Below are positions 6,278 through 15,429 of a stretch of DNA of 24,000 bases, piece after piece. Position 1 is the stretch's first letter; each line of letters starts with the position of its first letter. The notes under the pieces are model-generated. The model was not told the origin of the DNA and did not search any database. It saw only the letters and a list, made by a program, of their open reading frames with translations. Source of the DNA: Egibacter sp. (lineage in GTDB: Bacteria > Actinomycetota > Nitriliruptoria > Euzebyales > Egibacteraceae); assembly GCA_003553795.1 (NCBI GenBank), contig PWFH01000026.1, positions 84,711 through 108,710 of the forward strand. Direction: 5' to 3'. The position numbers were made by a program, and so were the translations under genes.

Positions 6278-7110
6278 TGGAGTTCACGAAGGTCCACGGC
6301 ACCGGCAACGACTTCGTCCTGCTGCCCGACCCCGACGACGCCCTGACGCTGACGCCCGGCCTCGTGCGGGCGCTGTGTGACCGCCACCACGGCCTCGGCG
6401 CCGACGGGGTGATCCGTCTCGCCCCCGCGCGCGAGGGGGTGGCCGGCGACGTCTTCATGGACTACCGCAACGCCGACGGCTCGCTCGCCGAGATGTGCGG
6501 AAACGGGGTGCGCTGCGTCGCGAAGTACGTTGCCGACCGTGGCCACGTCAGCGAGCGGGTGCGCGTCGACACCCGAGCCGGCGTCAAGGAGGTCGAGGTC
6601 ACCCTCTGGCACGAGGATGGCACCGCCGCGGAGCTGCGCGTCGACATGGGCGCGCCCGTCGGCATCGGCTCCGAGCGCATCGAGCTCAACGGGGCGGGCG
6701 ACATCGAGCTCACGACGCTGTCGATGGGCAACCCCCACGCGGTCATCGTCATGGGCGACCCGACCGCGGCGCCGCTCGCGGCATGGGCGGAGGCGATCAA
6801 CGCCGATCCGCGCTTCGCCGACGGGGTCAACGTCGAGGCCATCGGCGTGCCGCGGCTCGATCGCATCGAGGGCCGGATCCACGAGCGCGGCGTCGGGGAG
6901 ACCCTCGCGTCGGGCAGCGGCGCCGCAGCGATGGCCGTCGCCGCCCACGTCCGGGGCCTGGCCACCCGCGAGGTCACCGTCGCCCTGCCGGGCGGCATGC
7001 TCGACATCGTCTGGGGGGACGCGGCGCTCACCGTGACCGGGCCCGCCGTCGAGGTCGCCCACGGCGTCCTCGACGCCGCCTGGCTGCAGGCCGTGGAGGC
7101 GCCTTCGTGA
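6277..7110 (+). CDS. dapF: Diaminopimelate epimerase DapF (second catalytic Cys position reads Ser)
   Basis: [34 protein letters not shown] (first catalytic Cys), MGNPHAV, and [16 protein letters not shown] (Ser at codon 212, tcg 6910-6912, where ACGSGA/SCGTG is expected). The ATG at 6277 overlaps the miaA stop (TGATG). Confidence 0.85.
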
Positions 7111-10676: not shown

Positions 10677-13445
10677 ATGGTCACCACACGTCAGGCCCTG
10701 CGCGCGGTCGAGTCCGACGGCCACACCGGCCTCAAGCTCGACCGGCACTTCACCACCGATGGTGCGCACCCCTACGACGAGGTGTCGTGGGAGCGGCGTG
10801 ATGCGGTGATCACCGACTGGAAGACCGGCGAGGTCGCCTTCGAGCAGCGCGACGTCGAGTTCCCCACGAGCTGGTCGCTCAACGCCACGACGATCGTCGC
10901 GCAGAAGTACTTCCGCGGGACGCTGGGCACCCCCGAGCGCGAGTCGAGCGTGCGACACATGATCGACCGCGTCGCCGACACCATCACGCGCTGGGGTGTC
11001 GACGATGGCTACTTCGCCGACGAGGAGTCCGCGGAGGTCTTCAACCACGAGCTCAAGCACCTGCTCGTCAACCAGAAGATGGCCTTCAACAGCCCCGTCT
11101 GGTTCAACTGCGGTGTCGAGGACAAGCCGCAGTGCTCGGCCTGCTTCATCCTCTCGGTCGAGGACCAGATGAGCTCGATCCTCAACTGGTACGTCGAGGA
11201 GGGCACGATCTTCAAGGGCGGCTCGGGCTCGGGGGTCAACCTCTCCAACATCCGCTCGAGCCTCGAGCCGCTGCGTGGCGGCGGGCAGGCCTCCGGCCCG
11301 GTGAGCTTCATGCGCGGCGCCGACGCCTCGGCGGGCACGATCAAGTCCGGCGGCAAGACCCGTCGCGCCGCGAAGATGGTCATCCTCGACGTCGACCACC
11401 CCGACGTCGAGGAGTTCATCTGGTGCAAGCGCAACGAGGAGATGAAGTCCCGCGCGCTCGCCGGCGCCGGCTTCGACATGAGCTTCGACAGCGCTGACTC
11501 CGCGACGATCCAGTACCAGAACGCGAACAACTCCGTCCGCGTCGACGACGAGTTCATGCGGGCCGTCGAGCAGGGCCGTGACTACGACCTCAAGGCCGTC
11601 ACGACCGGCGAGTCGCTCAAGACCGTCAACGCCCGCGACCTCATGGACCAGATCGCCCAGGCGGCCTGGGAGTGCGCCGACCCCGGGATGCAGTACGACA
11701 CGACGATCAACGACTGGCACACCACGCCCAACGCCGGTCGCATCAACGGCTCGAACCCCTGCTCGGAGTACATGCACCTCGACAACTCCGCCTGCAACCT
11801 CGCGAGCCTCAACCTCCGCAAGTTCGAGAAGGGCGGGGTCTTCAACGTCGACGACTTCACCCGCGCGGTGGAGATCACCTTCACCGCCCAGGAGATCATC
11901 GTCGGCAACTCCAGCTACCCGACCGAGCGCATCGCCGAGAACGCCCGCGCCTACCGCCAGCTCGGGCTCGGCTACGCCAACCTCGGCGGCCTGCTCATGA
12001 GCCAGGGGCTGGCCTACGACTCCGACGAGGGCCGGGCCTGGGCCGGGGCGATCACCGCGCTCATGACCGGTCACGCCTACCGCACCTCGACCGAGCTCGC
12101 GCGGGTGCAGGGGCCGTTCGAGGGCTATGAGCGGGACCGCGACGGCATGCTCCGGGTGCTCGCCAAGCACCGCGACGCCGCGGAGGCCCTCGACGACGAG
12201 CGCGCGCCCGCGGGCGTCCTCGACGCCGCGCGCCATGCGTGGAACGAGGCCGTGGAGGCCGGCACCGAGCATGGCGTGCGCAACGCCCAGGCCTCGGTCC
12301 TCGCGCCGACCGGGACCATCGGGCTCATGATGGACTGCGACACCACCGGCATCGAGCCCGACCTCGGGCTGGTGAAGATGAAGAAGCTCTCCGGTGGCGG
12401 TTCGATGCGCATCGTCAACCACACGGTGCCCGCCGCGCTCGAGAAGCTCGGCTACCAGCCCGAGCAGGTCGAGGCGATCGTCGCCTACATCGACAAGCAC
12501 TCGACGATCGAGGGCGCGCCGGCGCTCAGGGAGGAGCACCTCCCGGTCTTCGACTGCGCGATGGGCACCCGGTCGATCGCGCCCATGGGGCACGTGAAGA
12601 TGATGGGTGCGGTGCAGCCGTTCATCTCCGGGGCGATCTCGAAGACGATCAACCTGCCGGAGTCGGCGACCGTCGAGGACGTCGCCGAGACCTACATGGA
12701 GGGATGGCGCCTCGGGCTCAAGGCCGTGGCGATCTACCGCGACAACTGCAAGGTCGCCCAGCCGCTCGCCATCGCCAAGGACGAGTCCAACGAGGCGAAG
12801 GCCCCGGCGACCAAGGAGGAGGCCGCCGAGCGCGGTGTCACCCGTCGGCGCCTGCCCAAGCAGCGCCCGAGCCAGACGATCTCCTTCACCGTCGGCGACG
12901 CCGAGGGCTACCTCACCGCCGGTGAGTACCCCGGCGACGGCATCGGGGAGATGTTCGTCAAGCTCGGCAAGCAGGGCTCGACGCTGTCGGGGGTCATGGA
13001 CGCGTTCGCCATCGCGGTGTCGATCGGGCTGCAGTACGGCGTGCCGCTCGAGGAGTTCGTGAAGAAGTTCACGAACATGCGCTTCGAGCCGGCCGGCATG
13101 ACCGACGACCCCGAGGTGAAGTTCGCCTCGAGCGTCCTCGACTACATGTTCCGACGGCTCGCGATCGAGTACCTGCCCGCCGAGACCCGCCAGGAGCTCG
13201 GGATCTACTCTCTCGAGGAGCGCAACGCCCAACTCGACGCGCAGTACGGGCCGGCGCCAGAGAAGGCGCAGGAGCCGACCGTCGACGTCGAGGGCCAGAC
13301 GGTGCTGCCGGTCGCCGAGGGACGCTCGGAGATCGACGACATCTACGGCGACGCGCCGATGTGCTTCTCCTGCGGCGTGAAGATGCAGCGCTCCGGGGCG
13401 TGCCACGTCTGCGCCCAGTGCGGCACGACGACCGGCTGCTCGTAG
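10677..13445 (+). CDS. nrdJ: Class II (adenosylcobalamin-dependent) ribonucleoside-diphosphate reductase NrdJ
   Basis: 922 aa with SD GAGGAG 5 nt before the ATG. RNR motifs are present: FNSPVWFNCG, SACFI, GGSGSGVNLSNIR, GSNPCSEY and SISKTINLP-like GAISKTINLPE. The Cys-rich C-terminal tail (CFSCGVKMQRSGACHVCAQCGTTTGCS) is typical of NrdJ. Confidence 0.95.
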   Translation: MVTTRQALRAVESDGHTGLKLDRHFTTDGAHPYDEVSWERRDAVITDWKTGEVAFEQRDVEFPTSWSLNATTIVAQKYFRGTLGTPERESSVRHMIDRVADTITRWGVDDGYFADEESAEVFNHELKHLLVNQKMAFNSPVWFNCGVEDKPQCSACFILSVEDQMSSILNWYVEEGTIFKGGSGSGVNLSNIRSSLEPLRGGGQASGPVSFMRGADASAGTIKSGGKTRRAAKMVILDVDHPDVEEFIWCKRNEEMKSRALAGAGFDMSFDSADSATIQYQNANNSVRVDDEFMRAVEQGRDYDLKAVTTGESLKTVNARDLMDQIAQAAWECADPGMQYDTTINDWHTTPNAGRINGSNPCSEYMHLDNSACNLASLNLRKFEKGGVFNVDDFTRAVEITFTAQEIIVGNSSYPTERIAENARAYRQLGLGYANLGGLLMSQGLAYDSDEGRAWAGAITALMTGHAYRTSTELARVQGPFEGYERDRDGMLRVLAKHRDAAEALDDERAPAGVLDAARHAWNEAVEAGTEHGVRNAQASVLAPTGTIGLMMDCDTTGIEPDLGLVKMKKLSGGGSMRIVNHTVPAALEKLGYQPEQVEAIVAYIDKHSTIEGAPALREEHLPVFDCAMGTRSIAPMGHVKMMGAVQPFISGAISKTINLPESATVEDVAETYMEGWRLGLKAVAIYRDNCKVAQPLAIAKDESNEAKAPATKEEAAERGVTRRRLPKQRPSQTISFTVGDAEGYLTAGEYPGDGIGEMFVKLGKQGSTLSGVMDAFAIAVSIGLQYGVPLEEFVKKFTNMRFEPAGMTDDPEVKFASSVLDYMFRRLAIEYLPAETRQELGIYSLEERNAQLDAQYGPAPEKAQEPTVDVEGQTVLPVAEGRSEIDDIYGDAPMCFSCGVKMQRSGACHVCAQCGTTTGCS

Positions 13446-13449
13446 TGTG

Positions 13450-13537
13450 AACCGCCACCCGGATGGCATGGGGATCCGCCAGCTCGTGTCAGTGGATCCG
13501 CCATCCGGTGTCAGTGGTTGCGCCAGGACTGACACGC
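13450..13537 (+). repeat. About 22-nt tandem repeat array with embedded competing hairpins, directly after the nrdJ stop
   Basis: Units: GGATCCGCCAgctcGTGTCAGT (13472-13493), GGATCCGCCAtccgGTGTCAGT (13494-13515) and GGTTGCGCCAggACTGACAC (13516-13535, with the 8-mer inverted), plus a degenerate unit at about 13450-13471 (CCGCCA at 13452). ACTGACAC can pair with either upstream GTGTCAGT. CCGGATGG (13459-13466) pairs with CCATCCGG (13501-13508). Confidence 0.7.
13507..13537 (+). terminator. Possible nrdJ terminator hairpin (no U-tract)
   Basis: GTGTCAGT (13508-13515) and ACTGACAC (13528-13535) form an 8-bp perfect stem 62 nt after the nrdJ TAG. There is no trailing T-run, which is common in actinobacteria but weakens the call. 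Confidence 0.35.
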
Positions 13538-13981
13538 CATGAGTGAGGCCAGGCTGGCCGGTGAGGTGTCGCCGGTCGGCCTGGCCTCCGGCGTCGCGCG
13601 TGCGGAGCAGACACGCGAATCCCTGCCCGCGGCGTCCGGCTCGTTCCGCGGTCCGATCCCTGCAGGTGGTGAGCGGCCTTGAGCGTGACCGATGCGTTGT
13701 CCTGGGCGACAGCGGAACAGGAAGGGGTGGTCGGCTCCCGCCCCGGCGTCAACATGTCGTGGTGTTCGCGCCGGGGAGTAAGGACAGCACACCGGCAACG
13801 CGGTGGCGGGGCCGCGGCGCTCCGGTCGCGGTGCCACCGCAGGGCCGCGGCGAGCGCAGCAACCGCCCGCGAGAGGGTCTGTCGCACGCACTCTCGGCGC
13901 AATTGGCGTGGTGTGGCGGCCAAGCCGGTCGCCGAGGGCACCGACATGCTGCCAGCAACCGCCGAGTTGGTCTTCTGAACG

Positions 13982-14167
13982 GTGTTGGGCCTCATCGCCC
14001 TCGTTGGGCTCATCGCCGCCGGGCTCTGGGCCGCGAAGCATCGGTACTTCGGCTATCGGCGCGTGCGAGCACAGGCGGACCAGGCCTCTGCCCCCGACCC
14101 GCCGCACGAGCGCAGTCTGAAGCGTTCGGACGGCGCCGGGCCGCGGGTGCCCCCTGACCAGCGATGA
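13982..14167 (+). CDS. Possible small single-pass membrane protein (61 aa); weak call
   Basis: GTG start with no SD. The N-terminal helix is LGLIALVGLIAAGLWAA, followed by a basic stretch (KHRYFGYRRVR). GC3 is about 83% by my count, against >90% in neighbouring genes. An internal near-duplicate (GTTGGGCCTCATCGCC at 13984 and GTTGGGCTCATCGCC at 14003) keeps CTCATCGCC in frame. Confidence 0.3.
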   Translation: MLGLIALVGLIAAGLWAAKHRYFGYRRVRAQADQASAPDPPHERSLKRSDGAGPRVPPDQR

Positions 14168-14311
14168 TGGAGGTCCCCACACCGCAGCTCCGTCGGCGCC
14201 GCCATGCGCGCACCCGCCGTCCCTTGACGTCGGTCAGGCGCACCTCAGCCGCAGGGGCGGGGTCGGACCCTTCGCGCACCGCCGCCCAGAGACCGTGCTC
14301 CGCCGCAGGGG

Positions 14312-14342
14312 TGTGAGTCTCGCCATTCTGGCGAGACTCGCA
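14312..14342 (+). other. Strong hairpin in the heliorhodopsin upstream region
   Basis: GAGTCTCGCC (14315-14324), loop attct, then GGCGAGACTC (14330-14339). This is a perfect 10-bp stem extendable to about 13 bp (14312-14342). Function is unknown (attenuator, processing site or protein-binding site). Confidence 0.5.
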
Positions 14343-14610
14343 GAACGATCCCAAGAGGAGAGGCGGGACAGCGTCAATGCGCCACCCCCCCTGAGGGGGG
14401 CGAGCGTCGCCGGGGGACCACGCACCCGGCTGGCGGCCCCCGCAGGGAGGGCCCACGGCATCCCGGCGAGGGGGCCGTGGCCCGCACCGGTCCGTCACGC
14501 GGCTTGGCGCCGGCCCGGAGGGCGCAGAGTCCGTGATCGCCACGGTCACGGGTGCTGGTGGCCGAGCCGCCGGGGCGCTGACGGCCAGCGCCGCAACGGG
14601 AGGATTCACG

Positions 14611-15429
14611 ATGACCGATGCCTTGCTCTTCCCCGGCATGACCGAGGGGGACATCACCGCGCGGCTGCGCCGGCTGCGGTGGCAGAACGCCGCGATGGGG
14701 GTGCTCCATCTCGGCCAGGCCGTCGCGGTGTGGGCGCTCAACGAGACGAAGTTCGCCCTGCCGGTGACGTCGACCTACCCCGCCGGTCCGCCTGGCACCC
14801 CGCCGGCGCTGTGGGAGCCGCCGATCGGCTCGGTCGACATCGGCCTGTGGATCTTCGTGTTCCTCGCGCTCAGCGCGTTCTTCCACTTCCTCATCGCGTC
14901 GCCGTGGTACTTCCCCCGCTACGCCGCCGACATCCGCCGCGGCAAGAACTCCGCGCGCTGGGTCGAGTACTCGCTGTCCTCCTCGGTGATGCTCATCGTC
15001 ATCGCCGCGATCACCGGCATCGTCGACATCGCGGCGTTCATCGCGATCTTCGGCGCGAACGTGGCGATGATCGCCTTCGGGGAGATCCAGGAGCGCTACG
15101 AACGCCCCGGTGGCTCCCTGCTGCCCTTCTGGCTCGGGACCCTCGTCGGACTCGTTCCCTGGGTGGCGATCGGCTTCTACCTCTTCGGCGTCGGCGCGGA
15201 GGGCTACGACCTGGGGCAGGTCCCCGGTTTCGTGTGGGTGGTCTTCTTCGCGATCTTCGCCTTCTTCTTCTCCTTCGGGCTCAACCAGTGGCTGCAGTTC
15301 AAGCGCTTGGGCCCGTGGCGCAACTACGTCGTCGGTGAGACGACCTACGTCGTGCTGTCGCTGGTTGCGAAGTCGCTGCTGGCGTGGCTGCTGTTCGCCA
15401 ACGTGCTCGCCGCCGCGGCCTTCGACTGA
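14611..15429 (+). CDS. Heliorhodopsin (retinal-binding 7-TM photoreceptor, inverted topology)
   Basis: 272 aa from the ATG at 14611, with SD GGGAGGA (14598-14604) 6 nt upstream. Family-defining strings are recalled from the prototype 48C12: GVLHLGQAVAVWAL, LSAFFHFLIAS, RWVEYSLSSSVM (counter-ion Glu), LLPFWLGTLVGLVPW and YVVLSLVAKSLLAW (Schiff-base Lys). The track ORF starts at 14533, but that N-terminus has no SD. Confidence 0.9.
   Translation: MTDALLFPGMTEGDITARLRRLRWQNAAMGVLHLGQAVAVWALNETKFALPVTSTYPAGPPGTPPALWEPPIGSVDIGLWIFVFLALSAFFHFLIASPWYFPRYAADIRRGKNSARWVEYSLSSSVMLIVIAAITGIVDIAAFIAIFGANVAMIAFGEIQERYERPGGSLLPFWLGTLVGLVPWVAIGFYLFGVGAEGYDLGQVPGFVWVVFFAIFAFFFSFGLNQWLQFKRLGPWRNYVVGETTYVVLSLVAKSLLAWLLFANVLAAAAFD

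Follow-up and report, generated by a model that had tools for sequence, protein, structure and literature searches.

A conserved repeat-and-hairpin module directly behind nrdJ and the patchwork interval that separates it from a heliorhodopsin gene in Egibacter sp.

The window analyzed here is a stretch of 24,000 nucleotides (nt) from the metagenome-assembled genome of Egibacter sp. (Nitriliruptoria), designated G000 (3.13 Mb, about 70% GC, 96.5% complete; the window is G000:C155:84711-108710). In this window, the gene nrdJ (10677-13445, plus strand) and the heliorhodopsin gene HeR, which starts at ATG 14611 and whose product matches the Pfam family Heliorhodopsin (PF18761, E=1.5e-82), are separated by a genuine interval of 1,165 base pairs (bp), 13446-14610. 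According to our analysis, this interval is a patchwork and not a single functional unit or a single large RNA gene. Its first part is a module of repeats and a hairpin that is conserved behind nrdJ in other genera, and that is duplicated around inserted DNA in several relatives. We favor, with modest confidence, the reading that the interval is the current filling of a recombination-prone slot directly behind nrdJ, made up of the module, a spacer, a small gene, and lineage-specific DNA.

The relatives of G000 considered are Nitriliruptoria from sediments of the Kulunda soda lakes, and the comparison set comprises 143 class genomes, among which are 47 others of the same order and 86 of one further family. 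G001 and G002 belong to the same genus as G000, and their HeR is 92 to 93% identical to that of G000; G015 is "Nitriliruptoria bacterium B1Sed10_92." Matching metagenome contigs are of the SL_5KL/8KL_010_SED series. The same gap is found in seven conspecific contigs from other samples at 98 to 99.6% identity, and other species are without it. The unusual length that a preliminary description had attributed to the gap is borne out, since it ranks about 15th among some 1,960 gaps of the genome (median, 88 nt; 99th percentile, 1,035 nt) as delimited by a crude gene caller.

The module behind nrdJ and its duplication around inserted DNA

The module joins a repeat element to the hairpin H2 (Table 1). 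Within the repeat element, the CCA motifs lie at 13455, 13479, 13501, and 13523, and their partners are TGGCA at 13464, TGTCA at 13487 and 13509, and an inverted TGACA at 13530. The last of the four units (U1 to U4) is inverted, as is the first in most genomes. Twelve copies from six genera align nearly gap-free over 96 nt counted from the stop codon. Positions 13440-13534 are 89% identical to the corresponding sequence of G002, and the element is also recognizable in G024, G048, G015, G014, G011, and G037. R1, a covariance model that uses sequence only, detected the element in 24 of the 143 class genomes, including 12 of the 47 others in the order and 11 of the 86 in the further family, and wherever this was checked the matches lie directly 3′ of nrdJ. 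The distribution is patchy, since the module is missing in the congener G001. According to both blastn and R1, the module is single copy in G000, where TGTCAGTG has only seven occurrences in the whole genome; with filters off, R1 found no second, degenerate copy in the gap, the best other match (E=0.07) overlapping the element itself.

The H2 position is occupied by a hairpin of different sequence in G002 and in G118 and G119, where it lies inside the duplicated unit. In the H2 stem of G000, three strain polymorphisms all keep the pairing on the plus strand (U.G to C-G once and G-C to G.U twice). A peptide encoded by the element was considered and rejected, as the frames differ between genera and the GC content at third codon positions (GC3) is 0.71; an extension of nrdJ by read-through is not conserved. 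Within the element, 13458-13485 is a polymorphism hotspot in which seven sites differ in the conspecific contigs L021 and L018. Several of these states match those of the other species G002, which suggests import of alleles by recombination.

The slot behind nrdJ differs in every genome: it measures 1.17 kb in G000, 5 kb in G001, and more than 6.8 kb in G015, and in G002 it holds an insertion with a recombinase-like gene. The 5 kb of G001 include two minus-strand CWB2 cell-wall-binding genes between nrdJ and HeR. In G002, nrdJ is followed at once by genes for proteins of 455 and 528 amino acids (aa), and HeR is found on a different contig behind a YbjN-family gene. In G048, HeR adjoins a DEAD-box helicase gene.

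Direct repeats of the module flank the inserted DNA in G015, G024, G118, and G119, and not in G000, which has one copy. G015 carries three copies, at positions 119, 1514, and 5363 of contig C43; copies a and b, which begin at the stop codon, share 92% identity over 209 nt, and copy c shares 99% with the element of G024, a member of another genus. The closed genome of G024 has its two copies 5.4 kb apart, with helix-turn-helix and thioesterase-family (BAAT_C) genes between them. Two copies are present in G118 (155 nt, 97% identical) and two in G119 (129 nt, 91% identical), in both cases flanking a Phd/YefM-ParE toxin-antitoxin pair; this assignment rests on Pfam for G118 and on the near identity of the protein sequences for G119. 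The duplicated copy of G118 begins at GCAGCTAG, that is, with the last nrdJ codons and the stop codon. In front of the distal copies lies an arm that repeats the module's first 7 to 21 nt in inverted orientation, centered on the stop codon, as in ATCCACA-GCTGA-TGTGGAT of G024 and GGCCATCCGCA-GCTAG-TGCGGATGGCC of G118. As far as can be read from the sequence, arm and module at the distal copies are arranged like a recombinase core site; in G000, the arm on the nrdJ side appears to match the inverted repeat weakly.

In G002, the insertion is bounded precisely by ...CTCGTGA and TGTGAACC, both junctions showing TCGTRA, and the module is found on the far side of the inserted DNA, in front of YbjN-HeR. 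The gene for the 455-aa protein starts 160 nt after the nrdJ stop codon. The protein contains the motifs HDLRHTYAT...LGH...Y and matches, below cut-off, Phage_int_SAM_1 (E=3e-4) and Phage_integrase (E=4e-4), besides weak matches to XerC/D/S and to integrases of the PDB. In G017, an IS5-like element follows right after the nrdJ stop codon.

A few further observations concern these loci. The IS5-like transposase gene of G017 (L042, G017:C31, about 1929-2865) encodes 285 aa beginning YPSDVTDQQWTLIEPLLP..., a second contig of G017 has an identical nrdJ C-terminal part of 149 aa, and the nrdJ frame there seems to hold an intein-like insert. The assemblies of several metagenome-assembled genomes break at the nrdJ stop codon or at most 145 nt after it (the end of G015:C17, the start of G015:C43, and the end of G048:C59), which is consistent with repeated or strain-variable DNA at this place. 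The end of contig L011 (G002:C97, 2300-2634) is a 335-nt inverted self-duplicate with 85% identity, probably an assembly artifact at a repeat boundary.

Table 1. Features at and between the nrdJ stop codon and the HeR start codon, in window positions
Feature	Positions	Strand	Remarks
nrdJ stop codon TAG	13443-13445	+	left boundary of the module; start point of insertions and duplications in relatives
nrdJ-tail module	13446-13588	+	repeat element (about 95 nt) and GC hairpin H2
Repeat element	13446-13537	+	four units CCA-N5-6-TG(T/G)CA
Hairpin H2	13545-13588	+	about 20 bp, GGTG loop; closes the module, no U-tract after it
Spacer	13589-13945		unconserved; imperfect hairpin 13811-13851; CCGCAGGG at 13837
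ATG-led stub	13946-13978	+	10 codons; ends with TGA (13976), in frame with the small ORF; GAGGG Shine-Dalgarno 13934-13938
Small ORF	13982-14167	+	61 aa, GTG start, unannotated; conserved across genera
Species-specific HeR upstream region	14168-14610	+	CCGCAGGG at 14249, 14303, and 14440
HeR ribosome-binding site GGGAGGA	14598-14604	+	precedes HeR ATG 14611
Antisense ORF	13511-14182	-	223 or 230 aa in public pipelines; judged spurious

Attachment site, RNA element, or protein-binding site

The flanking duplications, the inverted arms, the stop-codon insertion of G002 with its recombinase-like gene, and the IS5-like element of G017 point to an attachment site. On this reading, 13446-13588 would be the place in the chromosome at which small integrative gene cassettes attach, with the nrdJ stop codon as their target, and the module would form the right arm and identity segment of this attachment site; in G000 the site would be unoccupied or its cargo would have decayed or been stripped. 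The module would be followed by about 360 nt of neutrally evolving spacer, then by a gene for a 61-aa single-pass membrane protein, and last by about 440 nt of lineage-specific DNA with the HeR ribosome-binding site and presumably the HeR promoter. Since the module is located on the nrdJ transcript, it may also serve as the 3′ hairpins of nrdJ. A more far-reaching proposal, which we advance tentatively and hold to be somewhat doubtful, is that Nitriliruptoria host undescribed small mobile cassettes that integrate at the nrdJ stop codon, each of them bringing a repeat-plus-hairpin module of about 150 nt. If so, such cassettes would stack behind nrdJ as integron cassettes do, without an integron integrase, and 13446-13588 would be the empty or last-remaining site.

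Several points weigh against the attachment-site reading. Recombination is what we infer from the arrangement of the repeats and not an event that was observed, and no recombinase is recognizable at most occupied sites: between the copies in G015, G024, G118, and G119 we found no recognizable integrase, and the recombinase call in G002 is under the cut-offs of both Pfam and NCBIfam. G000 itself has one module copy, no recombinase in the window, and no sign of mobility. Moreover, the stems of the module contain G-U wobbles but no A-C mismatches, and the plus strand folds better than the minus strand in six of nine copies, both of which fit a role as RNA.

The module could indeed be mainly an RNA element of the nrdJ 3′ untranslated region, in which mutually exclusive hairpins act as a terminator lacking a U-tract, as a 3′-end stabilizer, or as a regulator platform; the duplications in relatives would then have arisen as a side effect when imported nrdJ-tail alleles underwent homologous recombination. 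We deem this possible, yet rather unlikely. It would agree with the location of the module just past the stop codon on the sense strand of nrdJ, with the retention of a hairpin of different sequence at the H2 position in G002 and G118, and with the stable folding of single module copies (z-scores of -2 to -4). A two-hairpin model that pairs U1 with U2 and U3 with U4 has 84% of cells paired and 15 double-sided changes, a result reached by none of 500 shuffles, and strain L018 shows a compensatory pair, C13458T with G13508A. However, the register of the hairpins differs between sequence types, so that a single conserved long hairpin is rejected: only 60% of cells are paired under that model, and RNAalifold returned only seven weak pairs. 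The motif of all four units changes together in genus g66, from TGTCAG to TTTCAG, which fits protein-binding sites too. Absence of the module from G001 and from most of the order would be odd for a core regulator of an essential gene, no U-tract follows the hairpins, and the stop-codon-centered inverted repeats at the distal copies are left unexplained. The fold evidence does not decide between RNA and DNA site, since the two-hairpin pairing speaks for RNA, the register shifts and the weak RNAalifold result speak against it, and the concerted motif change would also fit binding sites of a protein.

Such binding need not involve recombination. The 22-bp-phased units could be double-stranded DNA sites for an oligomerizing protein that, as at iterons or operators, controls nrdJ or the genes that follow it, an idea suggested by unit spacing equivalent to two helical turns, by CCA and TGTCA motifs that are invariant between variable spacers, and by motif copies that evolve in concert within a genome. 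We give it little credence, since no gene for replication or regulation is a constant neighbor, each genome has different genes downstream, and the duplication of the whole 130- to 210-nt unit around cassettes is not accounted for.

When these results are held against the explanations offered in the preliminary description, an unclassified structured RNA applies at most to the first 145 nt or so, as the remaining kilobase has no homologue in the 143 class genomes except for the small ORF. Decayed remnants at an insertion point come closest to what we found, in that the slot differs in every genome, but the hotspot is anchored at the nrdJ stop codon and not at HeR.

A small membrane-protein gene within otherwise unconserved DNA

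A conserved small open reading frame (ORF) at 13982-14167 had escaped the preliminary description, which called the gap ORF-poor. In its predicted product (LGLIALVGLIAAGLWAAKHRYFGYRRVRAQADQ...), an N-terminal transmembrane helix, LGLIALVGLIAAGLWAA, precedes a basic stretch, KHRYFGYRRVRAQ. The ORF is 79% identical in nucleotides and 72% in amino acids to an ORF of another genus (13980-14112 aligned with G015:C43:7056-7188 and with metagenome contig L069), and the flanks cannot be aligned. From the shared GTG, the ratio of nonsynonymous to synonymous substitution rates (dN/dS) is 0.24; 19 of 36 changes are synonymous against 27% expected (p=7e-4), and the changes are distributed over codon positions 1, 2, and 3 as 9:8:19. 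Under a codon model trained on 668 long ORFs of G000, the small ORF scores +0.17 bits/codon, above the 95th percentile of off-frame sequences (-0.09) and below the 5th percentile of genes (0.51).

Other features count against a coding function. The codon usage is sub-typical, there is no clear Shine-Dalgarno sequence before GTG 13982, and an antisense frame sharing the wobble positions has a similar dN/dS of 0.26, although in G000 this frame is closed by a stop at 14053-14055. In strain L021, a T to C change at 14025, the sole polymorphism within the small ORF, replaces Leu15 by Pro in the predicted helix. All considered, we think that the small ORF is most likely a real protein-coding gene, judging from its sequence, and that it is presumably expressed, most likely from GTG 13982. 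The stub upstream of it corresponds by homology to the stretch by which the G015-type ORF is extended at its N terminus, and TGA 13976 is present in all conspecific contigs read at the site. Since dN/dS is about 1 over the 12 upstream codons, and these include TGA 13976 in G000, GTG 13982 is the likelier start in both species. Selenocysteine at TGA 13976 was rejected, as ARAGORN detected 52 tRNAs and no tRNA-Sec in the assembly.

The small ORF is confined to two species in searches of 1.84 billion representative proteins, 5.8 billion clustered proteins, 185,579 species genomes, and the JGI metagenome collection; among the 1.84 billion representative proteins, its sole relatives are the small ORF itself and the 65-aa G015-type protein. 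A general linkage of the small ORF to HeR was dismissed, as no HeR is present in the 2 kb downstream in the G015-type species. Upstream of the small ORF in the latter (L012, G015:C43), 6441-6936 contains two repeats of about 130 nt that are 78% identical, and between them lies a second small ORF (6566-6757, 63 aa) with a C-terminal hydrophobic helix; L012 may carry a pair of small-membrane-protein modules.

The small ORF could also be the surviving C terminus of a wrecked gene. The gap would then be the remains of one or more former genes, for instance of a frame-2 gene of about 160 codons (13679-14167) broken by TGA 13976. Frame 2 is open for 489 nt save for that one TGA, its GC3 of 0.80 exceeds GC content at the first and second positions, and the G015-type ORF reaches 12 codons upstream of the GTG. 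Nonetheless, a phmmer search of the 162-aa read-through product against the 1.84 billion proteins found nothing for residues 1 to 89, there is no Pfam or NCBIfam match, the codon score is -0.41 bits/codon, and the 11 strain polymorphisms in 13679-13978 are split 4:3:4 over codon positions 1, 2, and 3, besides the dN/dS of about 1 before the GTG already mentioned. As tblastx of the gap against relatives was swamped by high-GC sum-statistics noise, tblastn with all stop-to-stop frames was used instead; against the neighboring variable regions it matched only the element and the small ORF, so that the pseudogene remnants that had been suspected gained no support from homology. We consider a gene wreck quite improbable.

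An exact 15-nt duplicate, GCCGGTCGCCGAGGG, is found at 13307-13321 (nrdJ codons LPVAEG) and at 13924-13938, with about 0.01 expected by chance. The second copy lies 8 nt before ATG 13946 and provides its GAGGG Shine-Dalgarno sequence; the duplication may be a microhomology scar.

For the stretches on either side of the stub and small ORF, 13589-13945 and 14168-14610, no homologue was found in the 143 class genomes, in the neighboring variable regions, or in the protein libraries. The former has 6 to 9 polymorphic sites among conspecific contigs, with no codon-position bias and negative codon scores in all frames. The latter has 9 or 10 polymorphic sites among strains, including two indels, and also holds a 14-mer duplicated at 14244 and 14298, an 11- to 14-bp hairpin at 14312-14342, and a C7/G7 hairpin at about 14386-14402. 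Among four conspecific contigs, these stretches vary at 1.7 to 2.0% of sites, compared with 4.6% and 1.1% of third codon positions in nrdJ and HeR, respectively. The variation is about the synonymous-site rate, and the two indels are tolerated; we treat both stretches as neutrally evolving filler that presumably still contains the HeR promoter.

The antisense ORF that public pipelines report across much of the gap has a GC3 of 0.72 and a codon score of -0.55 bits/codon. It has no Pfam or NCBIfam match, and among 5.8 billion proteins only its own species cluster was retrieved. Its composition, its lack of homologues, and the conserved small ORF on the sense strand led us to judge it spurious.

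The picture of an ORF-poor, structure-rich gap holds in part: the gap itself, its composition, and its octamer stand, and the abundance of repeats and hairpins was overstated. Every gap ORF of at least 30 aa is negative under the codon model (-0.2 to -1.1 bits/codon), compared with +0.97 for nrdJ and +1.08 for HeR, and GC3 is 0.68 to 0.84 in the gap frames versus 0.96 to 0.97 in the flanking genes, in agreement with the earlier statement that no ORF here has the composition typical of the genome. The recurring octamer CCGCAGGG occurs four times on the plus strand against 0.08 expected, and this is the sole cluster of at least three copies within 700 nt in the whole genome. Instead of being packed with tandem 22-nt repeats, the gap contains a single array detected by TRF, with 2.5 copies of 22 nt (13472-13526). 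Only one perfect stem of at least 9 bp is present (14315-14339, 11 bp), and not several long ones; H2 includes wobbles, the hairpin at 13811-13851 is 84% complementary, and the density of perfect hairpins is 3.4/kb compared with 2.6/kb in the genome. No second copy of any piece of the gap exists in G000, and a dispersed repeat or miniature inverted-repeat transposable element was therefore rejected. Scans of the gap for canonical intrinsic terminators (hairpin plus U-tract) and for promoter consensus sequences returned no site of either kind, and the sequences directly 3′ of H2, CGGCGTCGCG, and of the 14312-14342 hairpin, GAACGATCCC, are not U-tracts.

There is little room left for the whole 1.17 kb to be one long structured noncoding RNA or a long regulated 5′ leader of HeR, an explanation that we regard as close to refuted. 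Folding is somewhat more stable than in shuffles, with z-scores on the plus strand of -2.9 for 13536-13945 and -2.1 for 14168-14610 (-4.2 and -0.7, respectively, on the minus strand), modest values across the gap, and the octamers cluster on the HeR strand. Against this, cmscan with Rfam 15 on both strands of 13000-15000 gave no match at E<=1. The kilobase has no homologue among the class genomes outside the module and the small ORF, its polymorphism is approximately neutral with indels tolerated, and an ORF under selection sits in the middle of the interval. Homology of HeR between G000 and G001, G002, and G048 resumes within a range from 13 nt upstream to 14 nt downstream of the ATG, and the 200 nt upstream of HeR are unrelated in all four genomes. 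We found no riboswitch or other conserved upstream sequence in G001, G002, and G048, and since homology starts about 13 nt from the ATG, a conserved HeR leader is ruled out; the long regulated leader that had been among the earlier candidates is not supported.

Known systems and implications for the Nitriliruptoria

Integrative elements are known to occupy the 3′ ends of conserved genes, where direct repeats of the target flank them, as do tRNA and tmRNA islands and e14 at icd in E. coli. In common with them, the nrdJ locus offers the very 3′ end of a conserved housekeeping gene as the target and shows variable cargo enclosed by direct repeats; G002 has a tyrosine-recombinase-like gene next to the junction, and G015 shows tandem occupancy. 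Unlike in these elements, the repeat formed by the module lies almost wholly downstream of the stop codon, measures 130 to 210 nt, and is internally repetitive and rich in hairpins; most occupied sites have no integrase between the repeats, and a single toxin-antitoxin pair can make up the whole cargo.

A likeness to integron attC cassettes can also be seen, since small, promoter-poor cassettes, including toxin-antitoxin pairs, each with an imperfectly palindromic site of about 100 to 150 nt, are stacked at one position, and since the sites, as in attC clusters with or without an integrase, are similar within a genome and divergent between genomes. In contrast to integrons, the ends of the module are without RYYYAAC or GTTRRRY boxes in alignments inspected by eye, the anchor is a stop codon and not attI, and no IntI-type integrase was seen, though no search was aimed at IntI. 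To our knowledge, integrons are not expected in Actinomycetota.

The GC-rich sense-strand hairpins right after the stop codon, with no U-tract, recall REP/BIME palindromes and the "I-shaped" actinobacterial terminators lacking a U-tract. Unlike REP/BIME, the module is present once per genome and not in hundreds of copies; across families it stays with a single gene, and its direct repeats are phased and contain an invariant TGTCA motif. The module shares its 22-bp phasing with replicon iterons, but none of the genomes examined has a rep gene next to it. Our literature search returned nothing relevant on nrdJ in connection with attB, nor on heliorhodopsin in connection with Nitriliruptoria.

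What appeared to be a mystery RNA region is hereby resolved into testable parts, and a spurious antisense gene of 223 to 230 aa is removed. For heliorhodopsin biology the outcome is negative, in that no conserved leader or regulator site was found upstream of HeR. The module and the small ORF merit follow-up; we see nothing out of the ordinary in the remaining kilobase. Standard annotation overlooks the candidate small membrane protein, whose gene adjoins HeR here and lacks this linkage in the other species. In an under-studied class of actinobacteria, cargo thus turns out to have landed repeatedly at the nrdJ stop codon; the examples seen include a toxin-antitoxin pair, a BAAT_C protein of the thioesterase family, and helix-turn-helix proteins. 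Should the module be a recombination site, it would represent a compact new pair of attachment site and recombinase, and a marker of strain-level gene flux in soda-lake communities.

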